Source: Actinomycetota bacterium (GTDB lineage Bacteria; Actinomycetota; Acidimicrobiia; Spongiisociales; UBA11373). Taken from it: a stretch of 54,951 nucleotides of DNA. The stretch lies in NCBI GenBank assembly GCA_043810615.1, contig JBDROA010000201.1, forward strand, positions 1 to 54,951, given 5' to 3'. The notes beneath the pieces were generated by a model, which had not been told where the DNA came from, searched no databases, and saw only the letters and a program-made list of their open reading frames with translations. Numbering within the stretch: position 1 is the first letter of the stretch; each line of letters opens with the position of its first letter. The position numbers and the translations under genes were made by a program. Positions 4,772 to 35,824 of this stretch are shown here, piece by piece.

Positions 4772-4956
4772 AGCCCACTCCCTTCCTCGTCGCTTGCCTC
4801 CGGCGCGCCCATAGGACGTGCCCGCCACTGAATCTAGCGCGCGCAACTGCCCCCCGCGTCGGGTGAGTGGGCCCTGATCCCGGCGAAAGGCGCCCCTGCG
4901 GCCAACCGGGAGGCCGGGCGGGCTCCGATCCGGGTCCCCGCCACCCCGGCATCCGT

Positions 4957-6012
4957 TCAGCGGCGGGCCACCAGCACCCGGAAGTCCCCCAGGCCGCGCG
5001 GATGTAGCAGAGCCTCGCCACCGGTGATCAAGCTGCGGACCCGGAGGCGCTCAATGGGGTCGCCGTCGCGCGCCAGGGCCATCTCCTCGCCGCGCCGGGC
5101 CGCCAGGAGGTCCCGCAGGCCCCAGCGCTCGAGGAAGGCCGCCTGCGGCAGCACCTCGGCCTCGGCTCCCTCCTCCACGGCCACCAGCGACAGCGCCCCG
5201 AAGTCCACGTCGGCGGTGATGTCGGTGCCTCCCGGTTCCACCAGAGGGCCGGGGCCCAGATGGTGCTGCCTATAGGTGCGCAGGGTCCCCTCGGCCCGCC
5301 TCCGGGCCAGGCCGGCAGCGGTGCCGCCGTAGTCGATGACCACCACCGCCCCGGTGGCAACGAGTTGCAGTGTCCCCCGCAGCCACTCCCCGGCGGCGAT
5401 CTGGGTCTCGACCACGCCGCCCTCCGCCACCGGGCCGGCGTGACGGGTCGCCCACGACGCCACCTCGGGGCGCGCCGGGCCCTCCAACCAGCACAGTGAC
5501 CTCCCGGCCGCCCCCACCACAAGCTCCACCCATCCTGCGCCCCGGCGCACCGCCAGGGCCACCGGCAGGTTGTCCGCCAGTTCGTTGGCCACCACCACCC
5601 CCCGGAAAGGGCCCACGATGGCCGCCGGGCCCTCCGCGACGGCCGCCTCGGGCACGAAGAGGCGCAGGGACTCACGGGCGGCAGGGGACACCTCGAGCGC
5701 CCAGGGGCGCACCCCCACCCGCACGGCGTCGAGGAGGGCGCGCAGTAGCGAGCCCGAACCGGCTCCGGCATCCACCACGGTGATGGGATCGGGGCCGAGG
5801 CGAGCGGCCTCCGCCTCCACGAAGCGGGCCAGGGTGGCCCCGAAGAGGGGGCTGACCTCCGGGCTGGTCAGGAAGTCCCCCTCCCGCGTCGAGCGCAGCG
5901 GGCCCGAGGAGAAGTAGCCCTCATCGGGGTCGTAGAGGGCGGCCCGCATGAACTCGTCGAAGGGGAGAGGGCCCTCCTGCTGGATGCGCCCGACGAGACG
6001 CTCGCGAAGCAC
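4957..6012 (-). CDS. SAM-dependent methyltransferase, MidA/NDUFAF7 family
   Basis: GPLPFDEFMRAALYDP..GYF, GDFLTSPEVSPLFG, DAGAGSG, ANELADNLP, DITADVDF, GLGDFRVL. Confidence 0.9.
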   Translation of the reverse strand: MLRERLVGRIQQEGPLPFDEFMRAALYDPDEGYFSSGPLRSTREGDFLTSPEVSPLFGATLARFVEAEAARLGPDPITVVDAGAGSGSLLRALLDAVRVGVRPWALEVSPAARESLRLFVPEAAVAEGPAAIVGPFRGVVVANELADNLPVALAVRRGAGWVELVVGAAGRSLCWLEGPARPEVASWATRHAGPVAEGGVVETQIAAGEWLRGTLQLVATGAVVVIDYGGTAAGLARRRAEGTLRTYRQHHLGPGPLVEPGGTDITADVDFGALSLVAVEEGAEAEVLPQAAFLERWGLRDLLAARRGEEMALARDGDPIERLRVRSLITGGEALLHPRGLGDFRVLVARR

Positions 6013-6021
6013 CCGCCCAGG

Positions 6022-7530
6022 CTACGGCAGCGCCAGGCCCCGTGCCGCCTCGCCGAAGAAGGCGAGCACTTGCGGGTAGAAGCCGGCCGCCAGCACCACC
6101 GCCGCGGTGATGGCCAGGGCGGCGGCCAGGGGGCGGGCGAGCGGCGCCCCTTCCGGCATCGGGTCGGGGGACGGGTCCATGAACGCCACCTTGAGCACCC
6201 GGGCGTAGAAGAACAGGGCGACGACCGCATTCACCGCCGCCACCACCGCCAGGGCCACCCCCCAGGGGTTCCCCGGGTCGCCCAGGACCGAACGGAACAT
6301 GACGAACTTGGCGAACCACCCGGCCAGCGGCGGGATACCCGCCAGGGAGAAGAAGAAGATCCCCAGCAGGGTCGCCAGCCCCGGCGAGTACCGCGCCAGG
6401 CCGGCCCAGTCGTCGATCTCCCGACTCCCGGTGCGCTCGGCGATGGCGATCACCGCGGCGAAGGCCCCCAGGTTCATGAAGGCGTAGACCAGCAGGTAGG
6501 TGAGCGAGCCGAAGAAGGCGTCCTGCAGGGCCGGCCCCTCGAAGGCGGCGGCCATGGCGAAGGGGACCAGGATGAACCCGGCGTGGGCCACCGAGGAGTA
6601 GCCGAGCAGACGCACCACGTTGCTCTGGCGCAAGGCGGTGAGGTTGCCCACCGTCATGGTCAGGGCCGCCAGGATCCACAGGGCGGGGCCCCAGACGTCC
6701 CGCGCCCCGGCGAAGGCGACGTAGCAGATGGTGAAGAGGCCCACGAAGCCGGCCCCCTTGGAGCCCACCGACAGGTAGGCGGCCACCGGCAGGGGCGCCC
6801 CCTGGTAGGTGTCCGGGGCCCAGAAGTGGAAGGGGACCGCGGCGATCTTGAAGCCGAACCCGACCAGCACGAACAGCACGCCGAGCACGAAGGCCGGCTC
6901 CCCGGCGACGGCGGCCGTTGCGGCGGCGATCCCGGCGAAGGTGAACTCCCCCGTGGTGCCGTAGACCAGGGACATCCCCATGAGCAGGACGGCCGACGAG
7001 AGCACCCCGATGAGGAAGAACTTCAGCGCCGCCTCGTTGGAGCGCAGGTCCCCCTTGCGCCAGCCGGCGAGCAGGAACGCCGGCCCGGAGACCAGTTCCA
7101 GGCCGATGAACATGGTGATGAGATCGCGCGACGAGGCCATCACCACCGCCCCGGTGATCGAGGCGAGCACCAGGAAGTAGTACTCCCCCTCGTAGTAGCG
7201 GTCGGCCCGCAGGTAGCTCACCGAGGCCAGCAGCACGATGGCGCCGGCCACCAGGAACAGGCCCTTGAGCACCAGGGCGAAGTCGTCCACCACATAGGAC
7301 CCGCCGAACATCTCCCGCGGCCCGGCGGCGCATGAGAAGAGCCGTTCACAGTTGGCCAGCGTCAGCAGGGGCACGGCAGCGGCGAGGAGCCCCGCTATCC
7401 CGGCCGCCCCGGCGAGCCAGCGGCGACGCGGCGCCACCACGAGGTCCACCCCCAGCACCACCAGCAGGGTGGCGCCGAGGATGAGCTCGGGGAGCAGGGC
7501 GTGGTAATCGAACACTCGCTCAGCCTCCAA
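6022..7530 (-). CDS. nuoN: NADH-quinone oxidoreductase subunit N (operon 1)
   Basis: SNEAALKFF, FKIAAVPFHFWAPDTYQGAP, SLAGIPPLAG. Confidence 0.95.
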   Translation of the reverse strand: MEAERVFDYHALLPELILGATLLVVLGVDLVVAPRRRWLAGAAGIAGLLAAAVPLLTLANCERLFSCAAGPREMFGGSYVVDDFALVLKGLFLVAGAIVLLASVSYLRADRYYEGEYYFLVLASITGAVVMASSRDLITMFIGLELVSGPAFLLAGWRKGDLRSNEAALKFFLIGVLSSAVLLMGMSLVYGTTGEFTFAGIAAATAAVAGEPAFVLGVLFVLVGFGFKIAAVPFHFWAPDTYQGAPLPVAAYLSVGSKGAGFVGLFTICYVAFAGARDVWGPALWILAALTMTVGNLTALRQSNVVRLLGYSSVAHAGFILVPFAMAAAFEGPALQDAFFGSLTYLLVYAFMNLGAFAAVIAIAERTGSREIDDWAGLARYSPGLATLLGIFFFSLAGIPPLAGWFAKFVMFRSVLGDPGNPWGVALAVVAAVNAVVALFFYARVLKVAFMDPSPDPMPEGAPLARPLAAALAITAAVVLAAGFYPQVLAFFGEAARGLALP

Positions 7531-9103
7531 AGGCGCGGCGCACCAGGCTCACCACGGAGTCGTTAGTGGCGCCGAAGACGATGGCCGGGTACACGCCGAT
7601 GGCCAGGGTGACCAGCACCAGGGGCACCCAGGCCCCCAGTTCGTAGCGGTCGGCGTCGTGGAGTGGCTCCTCGCGCCACTCCTCGGGAACCTCCCCCAGG
7701 TTGACCCGCTGCAGCATCCACAGCAAGTAGCCGGCGGTGAGCACCGTGCCGATGGCCCCCACCACCATGGCGGTGCGGAAGAGGGCCAGGTTGGCCCCGG
7801 CGAAGGGGTTGTAGGCGGCGAGCAGCGCCATGAACTCTCCCCAGAACCCGGCCAGGCCGGGCAGGCCCAGGGAGGCCATGGCGGCAAAGCCCAGGATGCC
7901 CCCCAGGACGGGGAGCAGCTTCTGGTTGCCACCGAGGCGGGCCATCTCCCGGGTGTGGTAGCGGTGCTGGATGGACCCCGCCAGGAAGAACAGCAAGCCG
8001 GTGATCACCCCGTGGGCCACCATGCCGACGATGGCGGCGTTGATGCCCACGTCGGTGAGGGTGGCGATGCCCAGCATCACGAAGCCCATGTGCCCCACCG
8101 AGGAGAAGGCGATCAGGCGCTTCATGTCGGTCTGGGCCAGGCAGGCCAGCGACCCGTAGATGATGGCCACCACCGCCAGCACGGCGACGGCCGGAGCCCA
8201 CGCTCTGGCCTCCTGAGGGAGGACGGGCAGCGCGATGCGGATGAAGCCGTAGGCCCCCAACTTCAAGAGGATGGCCGCCAGCAGCACCGAACCTACCGTG
8301 GGAGCGGCGGTGTGGGCGTCGGGGAGCCAGGTGTGCAGCGGCCACATGGGCACCTTGACGGCGAAGCCCATGAACAGGGCGAAGAACACCCAGAAGGCGA
8401 AGGTGCCCGTGAACCGCCCCTGGGCCCCCAGTTGCGAGAGCACTTCGATATCGAAGGTGCGCCCGGCCCCGGCGGCGTCGCCCGAGCGGAAGTAGAGAGC
8501 CAGGAAGCCCAGCAGCATGAAGGCCGAGCCGAAGAAGGTGAAGAGGAAGAACTTGATGGCGGCGTAGAGGCGGGTCTCCACGGGCTTGCGGAACCCCGGC
8601 AGCCGCATCGGGTTGCGGTCGCCCCAGATGCCGATCATGAAGTACATCGGGAGCAGCACCAGCTCGAAGAAGATGAAGAAGAGCACCAGGTCCAGGGCCA
8701 CGAAGGTGCCCGCCATGCCGGTGGCCAGCACCAGCATCAGCGCCAGGAAGGCCTTGGGATTGTGCGGCTCGGGCCAGTGGTTCCACGAGTAGATCACGCA
8801 GAGCAGCGTGATGAAGGTGGACAGCACCACCATCGGCAGGCTGATCCCGTCCACCCCGATGTGGAAGTTGGACCCGATGGCCGGGATCCACGACTTGTCG
8901 GTGCCGAACTGATAGCCGGCCTCGGCGAAGTCGAAGAGGATCGTGACGATCACCGACACGGCGAAGGAGGCGGCGGCGAAACCGAGGGCGATGGCCTTGA
9001 TCGCCGTCTCCCGGGCACGCGGGACCGCCAGCACCACGGCCGCCCCCACCAGGGGGAGGAACACGATGAGGCTCAGCCCCCACCCGTTCTCGAACCAGCC
9101 CAT
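7520..9103 (-). CDS. nuoM: NADH-quinone oxidoreductase subunit M (operon 1)
   Basis: GVDGIS, VKVPMWPLHTWLPDAH, LGLPGLAGFWGEF. Confidence 0.95.
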   Translation of the reverse strand: MGWFENGWGLSLIVFLPLVGAAVVLAVPRARETAIKAIALGFAAASFAVSVIVTILFDFAEAGYQFGTDKSWIPAIGSNFHIGVDGISLPMVVLSTFITLLCVIYSWNHWPEPHNPKAFLALMLVLATGMAGTFVALDLVLFFIFFELVLLPMYFMIGIWGDRNPMRLPGFRKPVETRLYAAIKFFLFTFFGSAFMLLGFLALYFRSGDAAGAGRTFDIEVLSQLGAQGRFTGTFAFWVFFALFMGFAVKVPMWPLHTWLPDAHTAAPTVGSVLLAAILLKLGAYGFIRIALPVLPQEARAWAPAVAVLAVVAIIYGSLACLAQTDMKRLIAFSSVGHMGFVMLGIATLTDVGINAAIVGMVAHGVITGLLFFLAGSIQHRYHTREMARLGGNQKLLPVLGGILGFAAMASLGLPGLAGFWGEFMALLAAYNPFAGANLALFRTAMVVGAIGTVLTAGYLLWMLQRVNLGEVPEEWREEPLHDADRYELGAWVPLVLVTLAIGVYPAIVFGATNDSVVSLVRRAFGG

Positions 9104-9118
9104 GTCGCTCGCCCTCCT

Positions 9119-11206
9119 CTAGCCGAAGATCAGAAAGCCGACCACCAGCAGCACCGCCCCCAGGAACAGGGCCGCGGCGTACTGCTGCACCTTGCCCGTC
9201 TGCACCCGGCGCAGCGCCCCGCCCACTTCGCCGGCGGCGGCCGCGGCGGCGTTGATGCCCAGGTCGATGCCCCGCTGGTCCAGCCCGCCGTAGACCAGCG
9301 AGGCCAGCCGGCGGGCCACCACCCCGAAGGCGTTGACCGCACCGTCGATGACCACGTTGTTCGACCAGTTCGCCGCCCGGGCCAGCGGCCCCCGGATGGG
9401 CCGCACCAGGGCGTAGTCGTACAGGTCGTCCACGAAGTACTTGCGCTCCAGCAGCGGGTAGAGGAGTGGAATGCGGAAGCGATCCCGCTCCTTCTGGGTG
9501 GCGCGGTCCCGCCCGAACACCGCCGTCCCCACCGCGATCCCGGCCAGGGCCGCCAGGGTGCCGATGGCCGCCAGGCCCAGGTCCAGGCCTTCGGCGTGGT
9601 GCTCCACGATGGGATGGGCCCGGGCCGCCAGCCACTCGGTGAGGGCGGTGAAGGCCCCCGGGACGTTGACCAGGCCGCCCACCGCCGCCAGGGCGGCCAG
9701 GCCGATGAGCGGGTAGGTCATCACCAGCGGCGATTCGTGGGGGTGGCCGGCTCCCTGGTACTTCCCGAAGAATGTGAGGTTCACGGCGCGGGCCATGTAG
9801 AAGGCGGTGACGAAAGCCCCGGCCAGGGCCAGCACCAGCACGAACGTCGCCAGCGACCCGCCCCCGTGCTGCGAGTCGTAGTACAGCGAGGCCAGGATCT
9901 CGTCCTTCGACCAGAAGCCGGCCAGGGGGACGACGCCCGCCAGGGCCAGAGACCCGACAACGAAGGTCCAGAACGTGGCCGGCATGGACTTCCGCAAGCC
10001 GCCCATGTCGCTCATGTTGTTGGAGCGGACCGAGTGGATCACCGACCCGGCGGCCAGGAACAGCAGGCCCTTGAAGAAGGCGTGGGTGAACAGGTGGAAG
10101 AGGCCGGCGGTGTAGGCCCCGGCTCCCATGGCCGCGGTCATGTAGCCCAACTGGCTCACCGTGGAGTAGGCCAGCACCTTCTTGATGTCGTCCTGGACCA
10201 TGGCGAGCAGGCCGCCCAGGAACAGGGTCAGCGCCCCGATCACCAGGATCAACGGCTTGAGCCCGGCCCCGAATCCCTCCGCCTGGTAGAAGGGGAACAT
10301 CCGTCCGAGCAGGTAGACCCCGGCGGTCACCATGGTGGCGGCGTGCATCAGCGACGACACCGGGGTGGGGCCGGCCATGGCATCGGGGAGCCACACGTGG
10401 AAGGGCCACTGGGCGCTCTTGCCCATGGCCCCGACGAACAGTGCCAGGCCCACCCAGACCCCCACATCGGCCAGTGCGGAGTCGTTGGCCCCGACGGCGT
10501 CGAGCAGGTCGGTGAAGCGGAACGACCCCACCGCCACCCCGGCGATGATCACCCCGAGGAAGAGGCCCACGTCGGCCACCTTGTTGACGATGAAGGCCTT
10601 GATGGCGGCGGCGTTGTTGGCATGGTCCTCCCACCAGTGTCCGATGAGCAGGTAGGAGGCGACGCCGACCAGTTCCCAGCCGACGATCAGTTGGATGGTG
10701 TTGGGGGAGGAGACCAGCACCAGCATGCCGCCGGCGAACAGGGAGAAGGCGGCGAAGAACCAGGTGAAGCGGACGTCGCCCTTCATGTACCCCTTGGAGT
10801 AGGTGAACACGAAGAAGCCGACGATGCCGACGACGAAGTACATCATGGTGGACAGGCCGTCCACCAGCCAGCCCCACTCGAGCACCAGGTCGGCGCCGCC
10901 GGGGAGCACGCCGATGCGGGCGATCTCGATGTGGCGCTCGAAGGCGAAGGGCTCCACCCAGTTGCCGATGAGCAGCGCCGTCCCGTAGAGGGCGACAAAG
11001 GCCAGGGCCCCCTCGGCCAGCTCCCAGCCCTTGAAGGGGAGGCGCTTGCCGAAGAGCACGATGAGCCCCATCGCCAGCAGCGGGACCACCGGGATGAGCC
11101 AGGCCCCCTGCGCCAGCAGGCCGAGGAACCCGGAGGGCTCGGCGGCCGCGGCGGCGTGCCCGCCCTCGGCGGTGCTCAGTGCGGCGAAAGACAGCATCCC
11201 GGGCAT
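9119..11206 (-). CDS. nuoL: NADH-quinone oxidoreductase subunit L (operon 1)
   Basis: GKSAQWPFHVWLPDAMAGPTPVS, HAFFK, C-terminal QTG; ATG overlaps nuoK stop (TGATG). Confidence 0.95.
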   Translation of the reverse strand: MPGMLSFAALSTAEGGHAAAAAEPSGFLGLLAQGAWLIPVVPLLAMGLIVLFGKRLPFKGWELAEGALAFVALYGTALLIGNWVEPFAFERHIEIARIGVLPGGADLVLEWGWLVDGLSTMMYFVVGIVGFFVFTYSKGYMKGDVRFTWFFAAFSLFAGGMLVLVSSPNTIQLIVGWELVGVASYLLIGHWWEDHANNAAAIKAFIVNKVADVGLFLGVIIAGVAVGSFRFTDLLDAVGANDSALADVGVWVGLALFVGAMGKSAQWPFHVWLPDAMAGPTPVSSLMHAATMVTAGVYLLGRMFPFYQAEGFGAGLKPLILVIGALTLFLGGLLAMVQDDIKKVLAYSTVSQLGYMTAAMGAGAYTAGLFHLFTHAFFKGLLFLAAGSVIHSVRSNNMSDMGGLRKSMPATFWTFVVGSLALAGVVPLAGFWSKDEILASLYYDSQHGGGSLATFVLVLALAGAFVTAFYMARAVNLTFFGKYQGAGHPHESPLVMTYPLIGLAALAAVGGLVNVPGAFTALTEWLAARAHPIVEHHAEGLDLGLAAIGTLAALAGIAVGTAVFGRDRATQKERDRFRIPLLYPLLERKYFVDDLYDYALVRPIRGPLARAANWSNNVVIDGAVNAFGVVARRLASLVYGGLDQRGIDLGINAAAAAAGEVGGALRRVQTGKVQQYAAALFLGAVLLVVGFLIFG

Positions 11207-11511
11207 CACCACTTCATCAGGTCGAGCTCGTCGACGTTGGCCGACGAGCGGTTGCGGAAGATCAGGATCACGATGGCCAGGCCGATGCCGACTTCGGCGG
11301 CGGCCACCGTGATGACGAACAGGGCGAAGACGTGACCGGTGCGCAGCGGGTCCAGGAGCAGGGAGCCCAAGGCCACCAGGTTGATGTTCACCGCGGCCAG
11401 CATCAGCTCGATGGAGAGCAGCACCGCCACCGCGTTGCGCCGCACCAGCACGCCGTAGACCCCGAGGGAGAAGAGCAGGGCGCCCAGGATGAGGAACTGG
11501 TTGATCGTCAT
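11206..11511 (-). CDS. nuoK: NADH-quinone oxidoreductase subunit K (operon 1)
   Basis: LLSIELML, VAAAEVGIGLA; start MTINQF overlaps nuoJ stop. Confidence 0.94.
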   Translation of the reverse strand: MTINQFLILGALLFSLGVYGVLVRRNAVAVLLSIELMLAAVNINLVALGSLLLDPLRTGHVFALFVITVAAAEVGIGLAIVILIFRNRSSANVDELDLMKW

Positions 11512-12032
11512 TCCTTCGGGTCCTTCCGGGCGAGCACGATGCCCCCGATGAGGGCGGCGAGCAGCACGAACGACACGGCTTCGAAGGGGATCACGAAGCG
11601 ACTGAAGAGCAGGTCGCCCAGGTCGCCCGTGAGGTTTCGCTCCACGGTGGCGCCCTCCGCCCAACCGAAGAAAGTGGTGGTGGAATAGGCCAGGGTGGCG
11701 AAGACCGCCCCGGCCACCGCCATGGCCGGCCAGCGCCGCTCGTGGTCGAGGCGCACCGGGTCGCGCCGCAGCGGCGCCCGGGTGATCATGAGCCCGAACA
11801 GGAACAGGACCACCACCGCGCCGATGTAGACCAGCACCACCGTCCAGGCCACGAACTCGGCGCCGAGCAGCAGGAACAGGGCGGCCGACCCGGCCAGGGC
11901 CACGACCAGCATCAGCACGGCGTGGACCAGGTTGCGGGTGGTGACCACCCACCACCCGGCCACCAGCACAACGATGCCGATCGCCAGGAACACCAGGTTC
12001 TCGCTCTGGCCGATCCACTCGCCCCAGCTCAT
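11508..12032 (-). CDS. nuoJ: NADH-quinone oxidoreductase subunit J (operon 1)
   Basis: [29 protein letters not shown]. Confidence 0.94.
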
Positions 12033-12535
12033 GGCTCACTCCCCTCCAGGGCGGGAGGCTCGGGGACGGTCGCCAGCCACTCGCCCAGGCGCGCCTTGTC
12101 GTGCCGCAGGTCGGCGACGCTCTCGGCGGAGTACTCGTACTCCGGCGACCAGAACAGGGCATCGAAGGGGCAGACCTCGACGCAGGTGCCGCAGTACATG
12201 CACAAGGCGAAGTCGATGTCGAAGCGGTCGAGCACCGAGCGGGTGCGGGCCCGCCCTCCCGGCTCGGCGGGAGGCCGCTGCTCCTTGTGGCCCTCGATGT
12301 AGATGCACCAGTCGGGGCAGTCCCGGGCGCAGAGCATGCACACGGTGCAGGCCTCGGCGTCGAGGGCGATGACCCCCCGGGCCCGGGGCAGGGGGATCTC
12401 CTTCTCCAGCGGGTACATGATGGTGGGCGGCTTGCGCAGAAAGGTGCGCAGCGTCAGCCACATACCCTTGAAGAGGCCGAGGCCGGGGACCGCCGAGCGG
12501 AGGCGCTTGCCGGACGAGGACCGGGGGGCGCTCAC
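12029..12535 (-). CDS. nuoI: NADH-quinone oxidoreductase subunit I (operon 1)
   Basis: Two [4Fe-4S] motifs [12 protein letters not shown] and [12 protein letters not shown]. Confidence 0.94.
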
Positions 12536-13545
12536 CGGATCACCTTCAGCGTGGCGGTCACCGCGATGTTGGCCAGGGCGATGGGCACCAGCCAGCGCCA
12601 GGCCAGCGACTGCAGCTGGTCCTCGCGCAGACGCGGCCAGGTCCAGCGGAACCAGATCATCACAAAGACCAGGAACAGCGACTTGCCCAGCAGGACGAAG
12701 GGGCCGAACCAGTCGGCGTTCACTCCCCAGAAGTGGTAGCCGCCCAGGAAGAGGACCGAGGCGATGGCCGACATGGCCAGCATCCCGGCGTACTCCCCCA
12801 GCAGGAACATGGTGAAGCGGATCCCGGAGTACTCGGTCAGGTAGCCCATGACCAGTTCCGACTCGGCGACGGGCATGTCGAAGGGGATGCGCACCAGTTC
12901 GGCCAGGGCGGCGATCATGAAGATGACGAAGCCGATGATCTGCCCCTGGAGGGCGTAGGGCAGGCTGATGCCCACGCTGCCGATGTGGAACAGGGGCTGG
13001 GCCTGGGCCTCGGTGATGCCCACCATCGACATGGTCCCCGCCTGGATGACCACGCCCACCACCGCCAGCACCAGGGGCAGCTCGTAGGCGATGAGCTGGG
13101 CCCCGGCCCGCAGGCCCCCGATGAGGGAGTACTTGTTCCCCGAAGACCACCCCGCCATGAGGATGGCGATGGTGCTCACCGACCCGGCGGCCAGGGCGTA
13201 GAAGATGCCCACATCGAGGTCGCCGGCCACCAGCACCGGCGACAAGGGGATGATCACGATCACGGCGAAGGTCCCCAGGAGCGACACCATGGGGGCCAGG
13301 CGGAACACCGGCCCGTCGGCCTCCGCCGGGACCAGGTCCTCCTTCTGGAGGAACTTCAGGGCCTCGGCGAACACCTGGGCCCAGCCCCAGCGGCCCCCGG
13401 CGAAGTAGGGGCCGATGCGGCTCTGCATGTGGGCCGACACTTTGAGCTCGGCGAACATGATGACCAGAGCCACGGCGAAGACCACCACGACGGCCACCGC
13501 CAGCTTGACCCCGAGCACCACCCAGACGTTGTCCGGCAGGTTCAT
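12532..13545 (-). CDS. nuoH: NADH-quinone oxidoreductase subunit H (operon 1)
   Basis: [39 protein letters not shown]. Confidence 0.95.
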
Positions 13546-14741
13546 CGGTCCACGTCCCCGAGGACGAAGTCGAGGCTGCCCAGGATGGCGATGATGTCGG
13601 GGATCAGAGCCCCTTCCAGCAGCCAGGGCAGCACCGAGAGGTTGCAGAACGAGGCGGAGCGGATCTTGACCCGGTAGGGCCGCCGCCCCCCGCCGGAGAC
13701 GATGTGGTACCCCATCTCCCCCTTGGGGTTCTCCGCCCGCACGTAGCACTCCCCGCGGGGCACCTTGATGACCCGAGGGACCTTGGCCTGCAGGGGCCCG
13801 GAGGGCAGGGAGTCGAGGGCCTGCTCGATGATGCGAGCGGCCTGGCGGATCTCCTCGAGGCGCACCCGGCAGCGGTCGTAGGCGTCGCCGCCGGGCATGG
13901 TGACCACGTCGAAGTCGAAGCGGTTGTAGGGCAGGTAGTCCTCCACCTTGCGCAGGTCGAAGGCCACCCCCGACGCCCGCAGGTTGGGCCCGCTGACCCC
14001 GTATTCGATGGCCCGCTCGGCGGGCAGGACCCCCACCCCGATGGTGCGCTGCTGCACGATCTCGTTGCCCAGGACCAGGCCCTCCAGGTCGTCGCAGACC
14101 CGGCGCACCGCCGCCAGGGCCCGGCGGGTGCCGTCGCTGAAGCCCCTGGGCAAGTCCTGGGACACCGTGCGCTGCTCGGCCCCGCCCCCCGCCGCCGGGC
14201 GCACCCCGCCGATGCGGTTGAAGTTGGGGTGGAAACGGCCCCCGGTGACCCCCTCGATGAGGTCGAGCACCCGTTCCCGCTCGCGCAGGGCATACATGAG
14301 CGGGGTGGGCGCCCCCAGTTCGGCCGGGAAGGAGCAGAGGAAGACCAGGTGGTTGGAGATGCGGAACATCTCGGTGAGCATCAGGCGGATGTACTGCGCC
14401 CGCTCCGGCGCCTCCACCCCCAGGAGCCGCTCGGCGGCGACGATGAAGGGGACCTCGTTGGCGAAGCCCGAGACCCAGTCGATGCGGTTCACCAGGGCGG
14501 TGATCTGGGCGTAGGTGCGGGCTTCGACCAGCTTCTCATAGCCGCGGTGCATGTAGCCGACGACCGGCTCCACCTTCTCCACCCGCTCCCCGGCCACGGT
14601 GGCCACCAGGCGGAGCACGCCGTGGGTGGAGGGGTGCTGCGGGCCGATGTTGAGGGTCATCTCGGGGGTCTGGATCTCCACCGCAACCGCCGCCTCGGAA
14701 CGGTGCATGGCGAGGAGGTGGCGGTCGGCAGGGGTGGTCAC
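13542..14741 (-). CDS. nuoD: NADH-quinone oxidoreductase subunit D (operon 1)
   Basis: [26 protein letters not shown]-terminal GDVDR. Confidence 0.96.
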
Positions 14742-16180: not shown

Positions 16181-16209
16181 TGTGCTCCTACCCGCACGCG
16201 GACTGCCGG

Positions 16210-23530: not shown

Positions 23531-24685
23531 TCAGGCCGACCCCACCATTGCCCCCGCTGCGGCCGGGGCCTCGTCTGCCCCCCGCCGCGTCTCCCAGGCG
23601 CCTATGGCGAAAGCCCCCAGGCCCACCAACAGCGGGACCAGGTAGAGCAGGGCGGCCGCCAGGGAGAGCAGCCACATCCCGCCCCGCCAGAGCAGCGCCC
23701 CCACCACGAACCCACCCAGCATCCCGCCCCGGCCGCCCAGCAGGCGTTCCCCGGCGGCGGCCACCGCCGGGGTCGGGCCCACGAAGAGGCCCACCACCCA
23801 GAAAAGCAGGATGAGAACGGCCACCGGCAGCCCCACCAGGGTGAGGAACAAGGGGAGGGCCACGATGGGCGGCACCACCAGCACCCCCAGGCCGACCAGG
23901 GCGGAGCGCCTGGGGCGCTCCCGGGCCACCCGCACCGCGCGCGGGGCGGTCCCCCGAAACACCCAGAACACAGCCACCCCGGCCACGACGAACCCCAGCA
24001 CCGACAGCCACCCGACCAGGCGGGTCAGCGCCTTGGCCCAGACCGGGGCCAGCACCTCGGCCCGCACCAGGGACCCGCCCACCGTGGCCGCGTCGGAGAC
24101 CCGCACATCGTCGCTGGCCCGGAAGGTGACGTCCCCGGCCACGCGGGCGGCGTCGCCGAGCACCATGTCGTCCACCCGGGCCGCCACGTCGCGCCCCACC
24201 TGGCCGTCCACGGTGAGCCGCCAGGCCTGCGCCCGCACGTCACGGCCCACGCTGCCGGTCACTTCGGCAGAGCCGCCGATGACCAGAACGTCCCGGGCCA
24301 CCTCGCCGCCCACCCGGGCCTCACCCACGAAGGCGCTCAGGTCGGCGCCGATCCGGCCCCCCGCCTCCAGGCGCACCGCCGCGAGCAGCACCGACTCCCC
24401 CACCTCGCCGGAGATCCGCACCGGACCGCCGACCAGGCCGACGACGTCGCCCTCCACCGTCCCGGTGATGATCACCTCCCCGGTGAGCACCACCAGATCG
24501 CCCTGCACCACCCCTTCCACAATGGTGCGCCCACCCACGGCGTAGAGGTCCTCGGCGACCAGGTCGTCGGCGGTGACGATGACCTGGTTGGCGGTGCGGA
24601 TGCTCCCCAGCAGAGGGCCGGCGGGCAGGGCAATGCCCCCGGCGAGCAGGAGGATCCCTACCAGTCTCCTAAAGAGGAAGGGCAT
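23531..24685 (-). CDS. Membrane protein with bactofilin-like (polymer-forming) beta-helix repeats
   Basis: N-terminal hydrophobic segment, repeated GxVxGD(L/V)/RDV units, C-terminal multi-TM region; overlaps the nuoN 3' end. Confidence 0.75.
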   Translation of the reverse strand: MPFLFRRLVGILLLAGGIALPAGPLLGSIRTANQVIVTADDLVAEDLYAVGGRTIVEGVVQGDLVVLTGEVIITGTVEGDVVGLVGGPVRISGEVGESVLLAAVRLEAGGRIGADLSAFVGEARVGGEVARDVLVIGGSAEVTGSVGRDVRAQAWRLTVDGQVGRDVAARVDDMVLGDAARVAGDVTFRASDDVRVSDAATVGGSLVRAEVLAPVWAKALTRLVGWLSVLGFVVAGVAVFWVFRGTAPRAVRVARERPRRSALVGLGVLVVPPIVALPLFLTLVGLPVAVLILLFWVVGLFVGPTPAVAAAGERLLGGRGGMLGGFVVGALLWRGGMWLLSLAAALLYLVPLLVGLGAFAIGAWETRRGADEAPAAAGAMVGSA

Positions 24686-26135
24686 CGCGCAGCACCTCGA
24701 GCAACGGCCAAGGAGCGATGCCGAACACCAGCGTGGCCGCGGCGGCCACCGCCAGCACGACGCGGGCCCCCCAGCCCACCGCCGGCCCGGCGGGCACCTC
24801 GGCCGCCTCCTCCGAATCGGAGAGGTACATGGCCACGATCACCCGCAGGTAGAAGAAGAGGCCGGCCACGGTGGCCAGCACCGCCACGATCACCAGCCAC
24901 AGGTAGCCGGCATCGATGGCGGAGCGGAACACCGCCACCTTCCCGGCGAACCCGGCGGTGAGGGGGATCCCCGCCATGGCCAGGAGCATCAGGGACATCG
25001 CCGCCGCCAGCCACGGGGCGCGGCGCCCCAACCCGGCCCAATGTGACATAGGGGACCGCCCGGCACCGTCGCCCGACACCACCGCGGCCACGGTGAAGGA
25101 GCCGAGCACCTGGACGGCGTACGTGGCCAGGTAGAACCACATGTCGCCGATGCCGCTACGCCCGGCCACCAGGGCGGTGAGGATGAAGCCGGCGTGGGCC
25201 ACCGAGGAGTAGGCCAGCAGGCGCTTCACGTCGTCCTGAGCGATGGCCAGGAGCGTCCCCACCACGACCGACAACGCGGCGAGCGCGGCCACCGCCGGCA
25301 CCCAGTCGTCGGCCCGAGCCCCCAGGGCGCCGGTGAGCACCCGGGCCAAGGCGGCGAACCCGGCCACCTTGGCGGAGGCGGCGAGAAACCCGGTGATCCC
25401 TCCCGGCGCCCCCTGGTACACGTCGGGAGCCCACACGTGGAAGGGGGCGGCCGACACCTTGAAAGCCATCCCCACCAGCAGCAGCGCCAGGCCGGCGAGC
25501 AGCACCCCCGGCCGGAAGATGATGGTGTCCGCCAGGTAGTCGGCGATGCCGCCGATGCCGTAGATGGTCGTGGACCCGGTGGCGGCGAAGACCAGGGCCA
25601 CCCCGTACAGGAAGACCGCTGAGGCGAAGGCCCCGAGCAGAAAGTACTTGAGCGAGGCCTCGTCGGCATCCTTGCGCTCCCGGGTGAAGCCGGTGAGCAC
25701 ATAGAGGCTGATCGAGAAGATCTCCAGGCCGATGAACAGCATGATGAGGTCGGCGGAGGCGGCCATCAGGTGAGCCCCCGTCGCCGCCAGCATCACCAGG
25801 GCGACGAACTCGGCGCCGCGCCGCCGCTGCGAGGCCGCCAGGCGCCAGGCCGACATCAGCCCCAGGCCGGCCAGGGGGAACACCAGCATCCCCGCCAGGG
25901 CGGAGAAGCCGTCCACGGCGATCATCTCGTGCCAGAACACCCCGGCGTCGGAGCCCCGGCCGGCCACCCACTGCCAGGCGGAGAGCGCCGCCCCGGCGGC
26001 CAGGCCGGCCCCGGCGATCGCTCCCCACACCGCGGCGCGGGGCTTGAAGGTCACCTCGACCATCAGCAGGAGCACCACCGCCGCAACCACGGCGACCTCG
26101 GGGGCCACCGACAGGAAGGTGAGCGAGACGTTCAC
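24669..26135 (-). CDS. nuoN: NADH-quinone oxidoreductase subunit N (operon 2)
   Basis: EASLKYFLLG, FKVSAAPFHVWAPDVYQGAP. Confidence 0.95.
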   Translation of the reverse strand: MNVSLTFLSVAPEVAVVAAVVLLLMVEVTFKPRAAVWGAIAGAGLAAGAALSAWQWVAGRGSDAGVFWHEMIAVDGFSALAGMLVFPLAGLGLMSAWRLAASQRRRGAEFVALVMLAATGAHLMAASADLIMLFIGLEIFSISLYVLTGFTRERKDADEASLKYFLLGAFASAVFLYGVALVFAATGSTTIYGIGGIADYLADTIIFRPGVLLAGLALLLVGMAFKVSAAPFHVWAPDVYQGAPGGITGFLAASAKVAGFAALARVLTGALGARADDWVPAVAALAALSVVVGTLLAIAQDDVKRLLAYSSVAHAGFILTALVAGRSGIGDMWFYLATYAVQVLGSFTVAAVVSGDGAGRSPMSHWAGLGRRAPWLAAAMSLMLLAMAGIPLTAGFAGKVAVFRSAIDAGYLWLVIVAVLATVAGLFFYLRVIVAMYLSDSEEAAEVPAGPAVGWGARVVLAVAAAATLVFGIAPWPLLEVLRDALPL

Positions 26136-27676
26136 GGCTGCACCTCCGCGGCCGGCAGGTCGGCCTCGGTGCCGAACTGCGGCACCTCATACTCGGTGGT
26201 CATCTCGATGCGGTCCAAGATGCCCTGCACCGCCGGTTCCACCCGATCCAGGGCCGGCTTGGGGAAGATGCCCAGGAAGAGGACCAGCGCCAGGATCGGC
26301 ACCAGCAAGGCCACCTCACGGAACCCCAGGTCGCGCAGGCCCCGATTGGCCTCCGCGGTGATCGGGCCGGTGAACATCCGCTGGTAGGCCCACAGCAGGT
26401 ATACCGCGGCCAGGACCACCCCCAGGGAAGCGGCGATGGCGAACCCCGGCAGCGACAGATAGGAGCCCAGCAGCACCAGGAACTCCCCCACGAACCCGTT
26501 GAGCGGGGGGAGGCCGATGGAGGCCAGCGCCGTGAAGAGGAAGATCCCGGCAAACACCGGCATCACCGCGGCCAGGCCGCCGTAGTCGGCGATGGCGCGG
26601 GTGTGCCGCCGCTCGTAGATCATCCCCACCAGGAGGAAGAGGGCGCCGGTAGTGAGGCCGTGGTTCACCATCTGGATGACCCCGCCCTGGAGGCCCTGGG
26701 TGGTGAGGGCGAAGATGCCCAGGACCACGAAGCCCAGGTGGCTGACCGACGAGTACGCCACCAGGCGCTTGATGTCCTTCTGCACCGTGGCCACCACCCC
26801 CCCGTAGATGATGCCGATGACCGCCAGCACCGCCAGCACCGGCACCAGGTCCACCGTGGCCTCGGGGAACAGAGTGAGGTTGAAGCGGATCAGGCCGTAG
26901 GCCCCCATCTTCAGCAGCACCCCGGCCAGGATCACCGACCCGGCGGTGGGGGCCTCGACGTGGGCGTCGGGGAGCCAGGTGTGGAACGGGAACAGGGGCA
27001 CCTTGATGCCGAAGGACAGGGCGAAGGCCCCGAACAGCCAGAACTGAACGGCCCGGCTCAGGTCGACGCCGAGCATTTCGACGAAGTCGAAGGAGGGCCG
27101 CCCCAACTGGTCGCCAGCGAGGAGGGCCAGGGCCAGGATGCCGGCGAGCATGAGGGCCGAGCCCAGAGCGGTGAACAGGAAGAACTTCACCGCGGCGTAC
27201 ACCCGCCGCTCCCCGCCCCAGATCCCGATGATGAAGTACATCGGGACCAGCATCACCTCCCAGAAGGCGAAGAAGACCAGCAGGTCGAGGGCGACGAACA
27301 CTCCGAGGATCCCCGCCTCCAGGAAGAGCATCGAGGCGAAGTACCCCTTCACCCGGGTGGTGATGGCGGTGCTGGCCACCAGGGCGATGGGGAAGAGGAA
27401 TGCGGTGAGCAGCACCATGAGCAGGGAGATGCCGTCCACTCCCAGGTGGTAGGAGACCCCCCAGGGCTCGTACCAGGTGACCTGCTCCTCGAATTGGAAC
27501 CCGGCCGGGCCCACCTCGAAGGAAGCGAGCAGCCAGCAAGCCGCCCCCAGGGTCAGCAGGCTCAGCGCCACCGCCACCGGCAGCACCAGTTCCCCGCGAC
27601 GCCGGGGCAGGGCGAGGACGATCAGGCCCGCCACCGCGGGGAGGAGGACGATGGTGGAGAGGATGGGGAAGTCCAC
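26132..27676 (-). CDS. nuoM: NADH-quinone oxidoreductase subunit M (operon 2)
   Basis: GVDGIS, IKVPLFPFHTWLPDAHVEAPT. Confidence 0.95.
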   Translation of the reverse strand: MDFPILSTIVLLPAVAGLIVLALPRRRGELVLPVAVALSLLTLGAACWLLASFEVGPAGFQFEEQVTWYEPWGVSYHLGVDGISLLMVLLTAFLFPIALVASTAITTRVKGYFASMLFLEAGILGVFVALDLLVFFAFWEVMLVPMYFIIGIWGGERRVYAAVKFFLFTALGSALMLAGILALALLAGDQLGRPSFDFVEMLGVDLSRAVQFWLFGAFALSFGIKVPLFPFHTWLPDAHVEAPTAGSVILAGVLLKMGAYGLIRFNLTLFPEATVDLVPVLAVLAVIGIIYGGVVATVQKDIKRLVAYSSVSHLGFVVLGIFALTTQGLQGGVIQMVNHGLTTGALFLLVGMIYERRHTRAIADYGGLAAVMPVFAGIFLFTALASIGLPPLNGFVGEFLVLLGSYLSLPGFAIAASLGVVLAAVYLLWAYQRMFTGPITAEANRGLRDLGFREVALLVPILALVLFLGIFPKPALDRVEPAVQGILDRIEMTTEYEVPQFGTEADLPAAEVQP

Positions 27677-29557
27677 TCAGAACCCTCCTCGCGACAGGAA
27701 CCAGGCGAGCAGGGCCACCGTCCCGGCCACGATGCCCAGGCCGTACTGGCGCACGAAACCGGTCTGCAGCGGCCGCAGGCGCTCCCCCACGGTGCGCACC
27801 AGCACTCCCACCCCGTTCACCAGGCCGTCGACGCCCTTCTGGTCCACCGTGTCGGCGGTGAAGCGGGCGGCGGCCTCGCCCCCGGCGGCGAAGACCCGGG
27901 CGTAGCCCTCGTCCACCCGGTAGCCGCGGCGCACCAGGTCCCAGGCCGGCCCCTCTTCGGCGGGCCGGCGGCCCCGCAGGTAGGCGGCGGCGGCGAGGAG
28001 GATGCCCATCAGGGCCACCCCTGCCGAGACGATGGCCAGCACCACCTGCGTCCCTCCCGCCGGCAGGTGAGCCAGGTCGAGGCCCTCGAAGGCCGGCTCC
28101 AGGAAGTGCTCCAGGCCGGGGCGCCAGGGGGTGTTCACCACCCCGCCGGCCAGGGCGAGGACGGCGAGGGCGGCCAGGGGCCCGGTCATCACCCACGGGG
28201 CCTCGTGCGGGTGGGCCCCCTCGGCCCAGCGCGGCTGCCCGAAGAAGGTCAGGTAGATCATCCGGCTCATGTAGAAGGCGGTGAGCAGAGCCGTCAGCAG
28301 GCCCAGCGCCCAGATGACCCGCCAGGCCCCGCCCCGGGCGAACAGGGTGGCCAGGATCTCGTCCTTCGACCAGAACCCCGACAGGGGCGGGATGCCCGAG
28401 ATGGCCAGCCAGGCCACCGCCATGGTGAGGGCGGTCACCGGCAGTTTGCGCCACAGGCCCCCCATGCGCCGCAGGTCCTGCTCTCCGGCCAGGGCGTGGA
28501 TCACCGCCCCGGCACCCAGGAAGAGCAGGGCCTTGAAGAAGGCGTGGGTGGTGAGGTGGAACATGCCGGCCACGTAGGCCCCGGCCCCCACCCCGGCGAA
28601 CATGTAGCCCAGTTGGCTGATGGTGGAGTAGGCCAGCACCCGCTTGATGTCGTGCTGGGCCACGGCGATGGTGGCGGCATACAGAGCCGTGCCGATGCCC
28701 ACCGCGGCCACCACCGCGGCCGAGGCCGGTGCCAGGTCGAACAGGGCCCCGGTGCGGGCCACCATGAACACCCCGGCGGTCACCATGGTGGCGGCGTGGA
28801 TGAGCGCCGACACCGGGGTGGGACCCTCCATGGCGTCGGGGAGCCACACGTACAGGGGGAACTGGGCCGACTTGCCCGCCGCCCCCATCAGCAGGAGCAG
28901 GGTGATGACGGTGGCCATCCCCGTGGTCAGTTCCGTTGAGGCCCGGCCCAGCACCTCCTCATAGCCGAGCGAGCCAAAGGTGGCGAACACCAGCATGAGC
29001 GCCACCAGGAAGCCGGCGTCGCCCACCCGGTTCACCACGAAGGCCTTCTTCCCGGCCGCCGCCGCCACGGGCTTCTCGAACCAGAAGGAGATCAGCAGGT
29101 AGGAGCAGAGGCCCACCAGTTCCCAGCCCACGAAGAGCAGGGCGAACCCATCGGCCAGGACCAGGATCAGCATCGAGGCCACGAAGAGGTTCATGTAGGC
29201 GAAGAAGCGCCCGAACCGGGGGTCGCCCTTCATATACCCGATCGAGTACAGGTGGATGAGGGCGCCCACCCCGGTGACCACCAGCGCCATCAAAGCGGAC
29301 AGCGGGTCCCACAGAAGCCCGGCCCGCACCCCGAGGGGGCTCAGCCAGTCGAACCAGGGGATGTGGAGCGCCTCGCCGGTCCCGGCGAGGAAGCCCCAGC
29401 CCGCCGACCCGGCGAGGACGAAGCCGGCACCCACGGTGAGGGTGCCCAGCACCCCGGCCCAGGGCTCCCGCAGGCGGCGGCCCCCGGCGAGCAGCAGGAC
29501 GCTGCCTCCCAACGGGAGGAGAATGAGCAGGGAGACCATCACCTCGCTCGCCTCCAT
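27677..29557 (-). CDS. nuoL: NADH-quinone oxidoreductase subunit L (operon 2)
   Basis: GKSAQFPLYVWLPDAMEGPTPVSALIHAATMV. Confidence 0.95.
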   Translation of the reverse strand: MEASEVMVSLLILLPLGGSVLLLAGGRRLREPWAGVLGTLTVGAGFVLAGSAGWGFLAGTGEALHIPWFDWLSPLGVRAGLLWDPLSALMALVVTGVGALIHLYSIGYMKGDPRFGRFFAYMNLFVASMLILVLADGFALLFVGWELVGLCSYLLISFWFEKPVAAAAGKKAFVVNRVGDAGFLVALMLVFATFGSLGYEEVLGRASTELTTGMATVITLLLLMGAAGKSAQFPLYVWLPDAMEGPTPVSALIHAATMVTAGVFMVARTGALFDLAPASAAVVAAVGIGTALYAATIAVAQHDIKRVLAYSTISQLGYMFAGVGAGAYVAGMFHLTTHAFFKALLFLGAGAVIHALAGEQDLRRMGGLWRKLPVTALTMAVAWLAISGIPPLSGFWSKDEILATLFARGGAWRVIWALGLLTALLTAFYMSRMIYLTFFGQPRWAEGAHPHEAPWVMTGPLAALAVLALAGGVVNTPWRPGLEHFLEPAFEGLDLAHLPAGGTQVVLAIVSAGVALMGILLAAAAYLRGRRPAEEGPAWDLVRRGYRVDEGYARVFAAGGEAAARFTADTVDQKGVDGLVNGVGVLVRTVGERLRPLQTGFVRQYGLGIVAGTVALLAWFLSRGGF

Positions 29558-29560
29558 CGC

Positions 29561-29866
29561 CTATCCCTTCAGCCCGGACAACTCGTCCACCGACGCGGTG
29601 GCCCGCCGGCGGAACACGGTCACGATGATCGCCAGGCCCACCACCACCTCGGCGGCGGCCACCACCATCACGAAGAACACCGCCGCCTGGCCGTCGAGGA
29701 CACCCAACTGCCGTCCGGCGGCCACGAAGGAGAGGTTGGCGGCGTTGAGCATCAACTCCACCGACATGAACATCACCAAGGCGTTGCGCCGCAGCAGAAT
29801 GCCCGCCGCCCCGATGACGAAGAGCAGCGCCGCCAGCGCCAGGTACCAGCCCGGGGTGACGGTCAT
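29561..29866 (-). CDS. nuoK: NADH-quinone oxidoreductase subunit K (operon 2)
   Basis: [24 protein letters not shown]. Confidence 0.95.
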
Positions 29867-30396
29867 GCCGTCTCCTCCTCGTCGGGCGACTCCTCGCCGG
29901 CATGGTGAAACAGGCCCAGAGCGACGGTCCCGGCGGCAGCGATGATGAGCAGCAGAGCGGTGAGCTCGAAGGGGAGCACCCAGCGGCGGAAGATCTCGCT
30001 GCCCAGGGCCTCCACTGTGCCCTCGTCGCCCCCCCCTGCCGCCGGACCGGTTACCCAGGTGAAGCGGCCGGCCGCCAACACCGCCGCGCCGAACAGGGCG
30101 AGCAGACCCAGGGCCAGGGGGCGCTGCACCGGCAGGTTCTCCTTGCGGTCCTCCGCCCGGTCCACCCCCACGAGCATGATCACGAAGAGGAACAGGGTCA
30201 TGACCGCCCCGGCGTAGACGATCACCTGGACCGCGGCCACGAAGTGGGCCCCGTTGGATACGTAGAAGACGGCCACCGAGAACAGGGTGAGCATCAGCCC
30301 CAGGGCCGAGTAGACGGGGTTGCGAGCCCACACCGTGGTCACCGCCCCGAAGACGGCCGCCAGGGCGAAGACGACGAAGAGCACCAACTCCACCAT
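29863..30396 (-). CDS. nuoJ: NADH-quinone oxidoreductase subunit J (operon 2)
   Basis: [25 protein letters not shown]. Confidence 0.94.

Positions 30397-34531: not shown

Positions 34532-34539
<8 letters not shown>
32125..34539 (-). CDS. nuoG: NADH-quinone oxidoreductase subunit G
   Basis: IPRFC, CRMCLVE, HPLDCPVCDRGGEC, CILCARC, N7-type CPHCAVGC...CDKGR. Confidence 0.95.

Positions 34540-35820
<1,281 letters not shown>

Positions 35821-35824
<4 letters not shown>

Follow-up and report, generated by a model that had tools for sequence, protein, structure and literature searches.

A MidA/NDUFAF7-family methyltransferase gene behind an 11-subunit complex I operon in Acidimicrobiia and its association with arginine-type NuoD across Actinomycetota

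We analysed a stretch of 54,951 nucleotides (nt), hereafter the window, from an Actinomycetota bacterium (contig C201, GenBank JBDROA010000201.1). In this window a gene encoding an S-adenosylmethionine (SAM)-dependent methyltransferase of the MidA/NDUFAF7 family directly follows a nuo operon for an 11-subunit respiratory complex I. The enzyme, called MidA here, and its probable relation to the NuoD subunit encoded by that operon are the subject of this report. The window has a base composition of about 70% G+C and belongs to a 2.66-Mb assembly that is 96% complete; its nearest protein and locus relatives carry the label Acidimicrobiia. All genes described below lie on the minus strand.

According to the Pfam assignments, the first of the two nuo operons of the window (operon 1) extends from 16300 to 6022 and contains nuoA, B, C, D, H, I, J, K, L, M and N. 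No nuoE, nuoF or nuoG was detected in it with Pfam, the only such genes found in the window being those of operon 2. Within the limits of their open reading frames (ORFs), nuoA (15812-16300; PF00507), nuoB (15339-16043; PF01058) and nuoC (14738-15454; PF00329) precede nuoD (13542..14741; PF00346, E 6.6e-85), whose product of 399 amino acids (aa) is called NuoD1. Then follow nuoH (within the ORF 12532-13749), nuoI (3' part of the ORF 12029-13150), nuoJ (11508-12032), nuoK (3' part of the ORF 11206-12162), nuoL (9119-11212) and nuoM (7520-9103). The start codons of these six genes are unrefined; they were assigned with Pfam (PF00361, PF00662, PF00420, PF00499, Fer4 and PF00146 across nuoH-nuoM), and nuoI and nuoL were also recognized by NCBIfam. 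The last subunit gene is nuoN (6022..7530; PF00361, E 1.5e-63), and the MidA gene (4957..6012) begins after a gap of 9 nt, the nuoN stop ending at 6022 and MidA starting at 6012. A scan for promoters and terminators between nuoN and MidA revealed no such site, and two terminator-like matches within nuoN are no more than shuffled sequence yields. Operon 2 (about 24669..39126) contains the complete set of 14 nuo genes, E, F and G among them, with Pfam matches for N, M, L, K, J, I, H, G, F, E, D, C and B; its nuoD (36432-37745) encodes NuoD2. A first-pass annotation, made by a model from the sequence letters and their ORFs, had described a methyltransferase about 10 nt past nuoN of an operon devoid of the N-module, alongside an operon with 14 subunits, and the Pfam assignments agree on both points. 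In one groundwater metatranscriptome run (X1), a contig of 237 nt is identical to MidA at 5460-5688, and another of 151 nt matches nuoN without substitutions and with a single gap, DNA carry-over being possible in both cases. Two further runs (X2 and X3), which are only guessed to be RNA, contain relatives at 90-95% likeness.

The MidA gene encodes 351 aa from a GTG start. This GTG is the first possible start, a longer form being excluded because an in-frame stop lies three codons upstream. The protein matches PF02636 (Methyltransf_28, COG1565) with an E-value of 3.3e-33 and 115.6 bits, the cut-off being 23.3; the alignment covers positions 2-244 of the 249 in the profile. No NCBIfam model matched the protein. 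It carries the SAM motif I AGAGSGS (5749-5769) and the family motif ANELADNLP (5563-5589). In an alignment with 20 homologues at 28-79% identity to the window protein, G83-x-G85-x-G87 and E107 are invariant, as are N143-E144-x-x-D147, D227-Y228, G261, D264, T266 and Q290. In the stretch G-D-F-x-T-S-P-E, T49 is invariant, and D46, F47, S50 and P51 are kept in at least 90% of the homologues. Among sequences of the PDB, the best phmmer match is 4f3n, a COG1565 protein of Burkholderia thailandensis (E 2.5e-33); 1zkd, a DUF185 protein of Rhodopseudomonas palustris (E 3.6e-22), and the MidA of Dictyostelium (5ztz; E 1.4e-10, residues 12-99 only aligned) were also found. An AlphaFold2 model built with the 20 homologues has a mean predicted local distance difference test score (pLDDT) of 93.8 and a predicted template modelling score of 0.92. 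With Foldseek, this model reaches template modelling (TM) scores of 0.86 to 4g67 (COG1565), 0.84 to 5ztz with 21% identity in the structural alignment, and 0.77 to 1zkd, while the next match scores 0.35 and other methyltransferases do not exceed 0.45. The COG1565/DUF185 proteins of B. thailandensis (4f3n/4g67) and R. palustris (1zkd) are thus nearest in both sequence and structure; their entries come from structural genomics and name them as uncharacterised or putative. The PF02636 score, these PDB relatives and the TM score to 5ztz bear out the family named in the first pass. Judged by sequence and model, MidA of the window is an intact member of the PF02636 family with a predicted class I SAM-methyltransferase fold that includes the extra domains of the family. 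As for control genomes, PF02636 was detected in Caulobacter, Synechococcus and Haloferax, and the same search of Escherichia coli and Thermus thermophilus gave no match.

The two NuoD proteins differ at the position of the candidate target. NuoD1 reads GYMHRGYEK (14532-14558), with Arg66 encoded by CGC at 14544-14546, and NuoD2 reads GYLHTGMEK (37458-37484, in the context IGYLHTGMEK), with a threonine encoded by ACC at 37470-37472. These codons are as the first pass had reported them, and its claim that a single NuoD keeps the target arginine extends to the whole assembly, since the latter contains just two NuoD genes, together with one PF02636 gene. Arg66 is invariant across 19 aligned sequences of the same type. 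The NuoB subunits show the opposite arrangement. In operon 1, the 12-residue stretch of NuoB1 at 15588-15623 has a threonine (15609-15611), and NuoB1 aligned to mitochondrial NDUFS7 shows the same threonine, in IVAGTLTNKMAP. In operon 2, the corresponding stretch of NuoB2 (38590-38625) reads VAGR, with an arginine at 38611-38613 that aligns to chain position 83 of T. thermophilus Nqo6; NuoB of Mycobacterium smegmatis likewise reads VAGR. By alignment, operon 1 is therefore of the mitochondrial type (NuoD-Arg/NuoB-Thr) and operon 2 of the Thermus type (NuoD-Thr/NuoB-Arg). This reciprocal switch, as read from the sequences, agrees with the one published for Yarrowia and Thermus: cluster N2 depends on R121 in Yarrowia, which is part of the "HRGXE motif", and T. 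thermophilus has a threonine at that NuoD site, offset by R83 of Nqo6 (NuoB) at the place of T122 of NDUFS7, the side chains of the two arginines filling the same space (Hameedi et al. 2021, PMC8042128). Thermus, with GYLHTGFEK in Nqo4 and R83 in Nqo6, resembles operon 2 of the window. Unlike Thermus, the genome of the window has both solutions, and the methyltransferase accompanies the NuoD-Arg solution only. The first pass had contrasted a methylatable with a non-methylatable complex I; NuoD2 does have a threonine, but the second complex keeps its arginine, moved to NuoB. In other genomes of the class, NuoB reads VAGR in 5/5 tested genomes that have only HTG-type NuoD and in the 14-gene operons of 5/5 genomes of family f9, and NuoB of the 11-gene operon has the threonine in 11/11 loci found by a strict sequence pattern and in three more; these counts are small because the pattern missed most loci.

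Assembly of human complex I requires the dimethylation of an arginine beside cluster N2. In the 49-kDa subunit of cattle, the homologue of NuoD, Arg85 is symmetrically dimethylated; human, Pichia pastoris and Paracoccus denitrificans, a bacterium, have the same conserved modification, and the methylated arginine usually has a glycine next to it (Carroll et al. 2013, PMC3750175). NDUFAF7 is the enzyme to which dimethylation of the 49-kDa/NDUFS2 arginine was assigned (Rhein et al. 2013, PMC3829151). The window enzyme shares with human NDUFAF7 and Dictyostelium MidA the PF02636 family, the fold and the association with the 49-kDa/NuoD subunit. In addition, the candidate arginine of NuoD1 stands in the same HRGxEK motif as in the NDUFAF7/MidA substrate, 26 residues past the second histidine of QHPxxHG. 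Unlike these proteins, the window enzyme is bacterial and operon-encoded, with about 21% identity in the structural alignment and a predicted activity; its partner also differs, being an 11-subunit complex without the N-module whose NuoD has a tryptophan in place of the quinone-site tyrosine. Complex I of P. denitrificans offers a bacterial precedent, the homologous arginine of Nqo4 being symmetrically dimethylated (PMC3750175), but there the enzyme has 14 subunits and is alphaproteobacterial.

To relate MidA to NuoD type in Acidimicrobiia, 201 genomes of the class were considered, of which 183 contain PF02636. A cross-table of PF02636 against the pattern G-Y-x-H-R-G-x-E-K, whose reversed control gave zero matches, shows 180 genomes with both MidA and the HRG motif, 10 with neither, 3 with MidA and no motif, and 8 with the motif and no MidA. 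The co-occurrence of the methyltransferase with HRG- rather than HTG-type NuoD, proposed in the first pass as a check, is thus found in the class, with 11 discordant genomes. Contig ends account for 8 of these 11: the contig stops within the operon in G037, G125 and G129, it begins within nuoD in G071, G144 has a MidA fragment at a contig end, and in G091, G097 and G145 less than 4.1 kb of contig remains downstream of the motif. Contig ends give no explanation for G031, G108 and G165. GYLHTGMEK is retained by all 10 genomes with neither MidA nor the HRG motif; completeness is 96-99% for 8 of them (families f20, with 5/5 genomes, f23, f31 and f36) and 74-78% for the other 2. A match to the HTG pattern was found in 185/201 genomes, an undercount because variants of family f9 escape the pattern, and the lack of such a match was not used as evidence. 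The idea that family f9 has the 11-subunit operon only was rejected, as a 14-gene operon is present whose NuoD reads GYLHTGMER or GYLHTGMEW (L167, L168 and L169), the otherwise constant lysine of the motif being replaced.

We then considered the neighbourhood of MidA at 60 loci from 60 genomes and 33 families, drawn from 150 listed places with a preference for family spread and long contigs. At 37/60 loci MidA is immediately preceded on its own strand by an operon-1-type nuoN (at most 500 nt between alignment ends), and at 13/60 such a nuoN is found farther upstream on that strand (850-10,029 nt). At all 39 loci reaching the N-terminus of NuoD, the motif is GYMHRGYEK, with NuoD identity down to 53% and MidA identity down to 28%. 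Family f2 shows no linkage of MidA to the nuo operon, yet both genes are kept in 20/20 genomes. A second sample of 80 loci, found by a contig search with the MidA alignment that returned Acidimicrobiia-like records only, partly overlaps the first and is therefore not independent. Among its 71 evaluable loci, nuoN is adjacent in 22 and upstream at a distance in 9, and 17/17 NuoD motifs seen read GYMHRG[YK]EK.

The search was broadened to 251 genomes of the phylum, at least 90% complete by search setting. PF02636 was found in 83 of them (18 Acidimicrobiia and 65 others), and the pattern GYMHR..EK in 108, with zero matches in the control. The pattern is present in 70/83 genomes with MidA, versus 38/168 without it. 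When other forms of the motif are included, 82/83 MidA-bearing genomes have an arginine-type NuoD: besides the 70, there are 7 with GYLHR (GYLHRG.E in G218, G232, G246, G260 and G271; GYLHR[GS]VEK in G219 and G412), 4 with GYMHR..DK (GYMHR[AG][FM]DK in G224, G238, G266 and G292) and 1 with GNLHRGVEK (G229). In G218, G232, G246, G260, G271 and G229, the HRG-type NuoD is the only NuoD found. Ten genomes in these tallies are unpublished: G201, G217, G245, G283, G312, G336, G359, G401 and G411, with MidA and the motif, and G264, with the motif and no MidA. Without them, MidA is present in 74/241 genomes, 73/74 of which have an arginine-type NuoD, and GYMHR..EK occurs in 61/74 MidA-bearing and 37/167 MidA-less genomes. 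A looser pattern, G..HR...EK, gave many chance matches and non-zero control columns over the phylum; its per-genome counts were discarded and only recognisable rows were used. Some small genomes of family f65, which have no MidA (e.g. G233, G274 and G402), show the NuoD-like motif GYLHRCFEK, with a cysteine after the arginine.

Outside Acidimicrobiia, coordinates place MidA and a GYMHR-type nuoD at most 10 kb apart on the same contig in 29/65 MidA-bearing genomes (28/56 without the unpublished genomes). These pairs concern nine families: f55 (13/13), f60 (5/5, with genomes of 7.5-9.2 Mb), f49 (3), f71 (2), f75 (2), f67, f77, f79 and f86. In the four pair loci examined, nuoD is each time a lone gene convergent with MidA. 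It stands directly beside MidA in L079 (11213-13715) and L085 (102-3310), and one ORF separates the two genes in L075 (784-3349) and L078 (6-3289). No nuoB, H, L, M or N was found in the 3.8-14.7 kb fetched at these loci. The lone NuoDs read GYMHRG[YA]EK or GYMHRAAEK. This arrangement links MidA to NuoD itself and not to the membrane arm. In family f42, MidA is present in 18/18 genomes and GYMHRGYEK in 17/18, the genes being unlinked, as they also are in f51. The pairing of MidA with arginine-type NuoD is therefore beyond chance, since it is seen repeatedly in the class and also, with the genes arranged differently, in the phylum. The first pass had tied the enzyme to a complex without the N-module; the association is with arginine-type NuoD and not with the absence of the N-module, given the lone nuoD pairs and the genomes with HRG-type NuoD only.

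NuoD1 is also distinctive at the quinone site. In the alignment with T. thermophilus Nqo4, NRIDW stands opposite RMDY, which places Trp89 (14475-14477) at Tyr87, the residue deprotonated in quinone chemistry (PMC8042128). NuoD1 has His40, in the beta1-beta2 loop, but no equivalent of Thermus Y87, so that the canonical quinone-site set is incomplete. All 19 aligned NuoD sequences of this type, among them lone NuoDs, have the tryptophan, and the tyrosine is kept in NuoD2 (37401-37403) and in cyanobacterial NdhH. Because Trp89 replaces the quinone-site tyrosine, the acceptor site of the 11-subunit enzyme is non-canonical, and this enzyme may, judging from the alignment, bind or reduce its acceptor differently. 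A literature search for Y144W in complex I found nothing. Among NCBIfam models, NuoD1 scores highest with NF008974 (PRK12322; 432.6 bits, below the cut-off of 522 bits) and passes the cut-off only for NF004739 (PRK06075; 420.5 vs. 360); its best solved match is Thermus Nqo4, then cyanobacterial NdhH. A stretch of about 13 residues (about 181-193) has no counterpart in either of these two proteins; it splits the Pfam match of NuoD1 in two and is mostly missing from the consensus of related NuoD1 sequences.

The adjacency of nuo genes and NDUFAF7 has already been reported, though only briefly, in a 2021 preprint about heliorhodopsins. It describes in Ca. Actinomarina the string heliorhodopsin (HeR), 11-subunit nuoA-N, NDUFAF7 (K18164/PF02636), htpX and pspE, with a 14-subunit nuo operon near it (bioRxiv 10.1101/2021.02.01.429150). 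Ca. Actinomarina belongs to the same class as the window and shares with it the 11-gene operon followed by a PF02636 gene and the 14-subunit operon nearby. The window differs in having no heliorhodopsin directly upstream of nuoA and an S8 peptidase between MidA and htpX. The gene order of the Actinomarina type was also found in family f12 (L036-L038). Where the preprint mentions NDUFAF7 and nuo, it lists NDUFAF7 as an accessory factor and treats neither the Arg/Thr contrast, nor the NuoB switch, nor a phyletic pattern; the words "methyltransferase" and "MidA" are absent from its text. A literature search covering few subscription journals returned no discussion of the two-operon NuoD Arg/Thr contrast or the NuoB switch in these organisms, nor of the phyletic pattern of MidA or the lone nuoD-MidA pairs.

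Family, fold and place in the operon, taken with the reciprocal switch of Arg and Thr and the association across genomes, lead us to infer a substrate residue, its methylation state and the time at which it would be modified. MidA probably methylates Arg66 of NuoD1 in a SAM-dependent manner before NuoB docks. The enzyme would be a class I SAM methyltransferase of the MidA/NDUFAF7 type, expressed as the last gene of the 11-subunit operon. Its target would be the arginine of HRGxEK, equivalent to Arg85 of mammalian NDUFS2 and R121 of Yarrowia, and the modification would take place while NuoD is free or in a Q-module intermediate. Once modified, the arginine would be packed onto cluster N2 where NuoD meets NuoB, a space that the 14-subunit complex would fill with the VAGR arginine of its NuoB. 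The latter complex would offer no substrate, since NuoD2 has a threonine and NuoB2 supplies the arginine. Nearly all MidA-bearing genomes of the phylum sample have an arginine-type NuoD but the converse does not hold, an asymmetry that an enzyme-substrate relation predicts, given the precedent of E. coli described below.

Several observations weigh against this proposal. The conserved arginine of E. coli NuoCD is unmodified (PMC3750175), and arginine-type NuoD without MidA is common, as the 38 MidA-less genomes with GYMHR show; in families f47 and f48, the motif, GYMHR[GAS]FEK, is present in 12/13 and 10/11 genomes and MidA in 0/13 and 0/11, respectively. The arginine alone therefore does not imply modification. 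Conversely, G273, which is 98% complete and bears MidA, shows an HTG NuoD only. Related genomes are not independent, and the counts are tallies uncorrected for phylogeny. Adjacency of MidA to the nuo operon is not universal, being missing in f2 and f42. In the first neighbourhood sample, nuoN is missing from the fetched MidA flank at 10/60 loci (all 7 f2 loci, 1 of f8, 1 of f14 and 1 at a contig end), and in the second sample, no nuoN was seen in the upstream flank of 40/71 evaluable loci, most of these being from f2-like relatives (50-56% identity) and some having short flanks. Concerning the enzyme, its nearest solved relatives are uncharacterised, and its likeness to the characterised Dictyostelium MidA is low in both the phmmer and the structural alignment. 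Finally, no RNA contig bridges the nuoN-MidA junction (6012-6022). Prediction of a complex between MidA and NuoD1, both entered as alignments, weakly supports the proposal, with a score of 0.33 against 0.00 for the best of three controls; in calibration, the mark was reached by 116/157 solved complexes and 2/215 mismatched pairs, but at scores of at most 0.60 by just 18/157 solved complexes and by both of the passing mismatches. Agreement between runs reaches at least 48% of contacts, the partner has a pLDDT of at least 84, and no interface was reported. The reading of the first pass, a dedicated arginine methylation for this complex, is thus partly supported: it is retained for the family and the linkage, and amended on three points: methylation of Arg66 is a likely reading, the link is not with absence of the N-module, and in the other complex the arginine is moved and not lost.

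Alternatively, the enzyme may serve the 11-subunit complex through something other than Arg66, that is, another residue of NuoD, another subunit, or a role mainly as a NuoD-binding chaperone for which methyl transfer would be secondary. Operon position, co-occurrence and the lone nuoD pairs tie MidA to the complex or to NuoD and to no particular residue, and some of the neighbouring lone NuoDs read HRA and not HRG, whereas a methylated arginine usually precedes a glycine (PMC3750175). However, Arg66 is invariant in the 19 NuoDs aligned, the arginine is kept in all but one of the 83 MidA-bearing genomes of the phylum sample, and the homologous arginine is the only residue known to be modified by the MidA family in the source consulted (PMC3829151). 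A pure chaperone also fits poorly with the full conservation of the SAM-binding residues of MidA. We regard this alternative as unlikely.

An interpretation that we also hold to be unlikely gives methylation a broader role. MidA would mark a distinct and widespread class of NuoD (GYMHR...NR.DW, with a tryptophan in place of the quinone-site tyrosine), found in 11-subunit operons or alone, in which a lone methylated NuoD could be an exchangeable or free-standing module. If this were true, such a module might enter the 14-subunit complex by exchange, or else have a role apart from complex I, and would thereby alter either the acceptor or how the redox properties of cluster N2 are tuned. In bacterial respiration, methylation of the arginine would then be a regulatory or specificity device, more than an assembly step.

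The target of MidA could also be unrelated to complex I, whether a different protein, DNA or some small molecule; the gene order would in that case be inherited synteny without functional meaning. The family is widespread in bacteria and its prokaryotic function has so far been inferred in silico only, and a Wolbachia MidA expressed in E. coli gave DNA methylation signals, N4-methylcytosine (m4C) and N6-methyladenine (m6A), which are described as preliminary and weigh against the preferred reading (2025 paper, PMC12455994). Moreover, many MidA genes of the phylum lie in unrelated neighbourhoods. Against mere synteny, however, two gene arrangements in different classes link MidA to arginine-type nuoD, the f2 genomes all keep both genes despite their separation, the 10 genomes without MidA and HRG motif have retained the other complex I operon, and arginine-type NuoD is missing in just one of the MidA-bearing genomes of the phylum sample. 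We consider an unrelated target quite improbable. That MidA serves the 14-subunit complex too or instead, for instance by methylating the VAGR arginine of NuoB, is very improbable: both arginine side chains occupy the same space (PMC8042128) and both operons lie within one 35-kb stretch, but the 10 HTG-only genomes of the class have no MidA while the 5/5 tested read VAGR in NuoB, and T. thermophilus, with the same switch, has no PF02636 match.

Methylation of NuoD1 Arg66 by MidA therefore remains our preferred reading, and the other features of the window can be set beside it. About 8 kb separates the two nuo operons, which share a strand and stand in tandem. Many genomes of the class have both motifs, HRG and HTG, on a single contig at a distance of 15-29 kb, and likewise family f42 of another class. 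From this gene order, the tandem placing looks old. Downstream of MidA, an S8 subtilase of 1073 aa with a PA domain (1625-4846; PF00082, PF02225) is inserted between MidA and an HtpX-like M48 peptidase gene (about 589-1449), all on the same strand. The latter was found by tblastn with the M48 protein of L016 (55% identity, E 5e-83). An M48 gene lies 3' of MidA on the same strand in 16/60 related loci, including family f2, and among the f2 and f8 loci scanned, it is downstream of MidA in 4/8 (L016, L017, L020 and L029). Just upstream of operon 2, a gene at 39331-40605 encodes a flavin adenine dinucleotide (FAD)-dependent oxidoreductase with weak geranylgeranyl-reductase and lycopene-cyclase signals, which may act on a quinone side chain.

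In the genome of the window and in most of the class, a complex with a NuoD arginine and MidA thus exists beside a complex with a NuoB arginine and no MidA. These side-by-side solutions for the arginine constitute a natural control for the role of the methyl groups. The lone nuoD-MidA pairs, found in Streptomyces-sized genomes, may offer a genetically tractable test of enzyme and substrate. The value of the locus lies in this within-genome contrast and in the lone nuoD-MidA modules, the enzyme being a bacterial MidA/NDUFAF7. Confirmation of the methylation would mean that complex I undergoes protein arginine methylation far outside the alphaproteobacterial and mitochondrial lineage.

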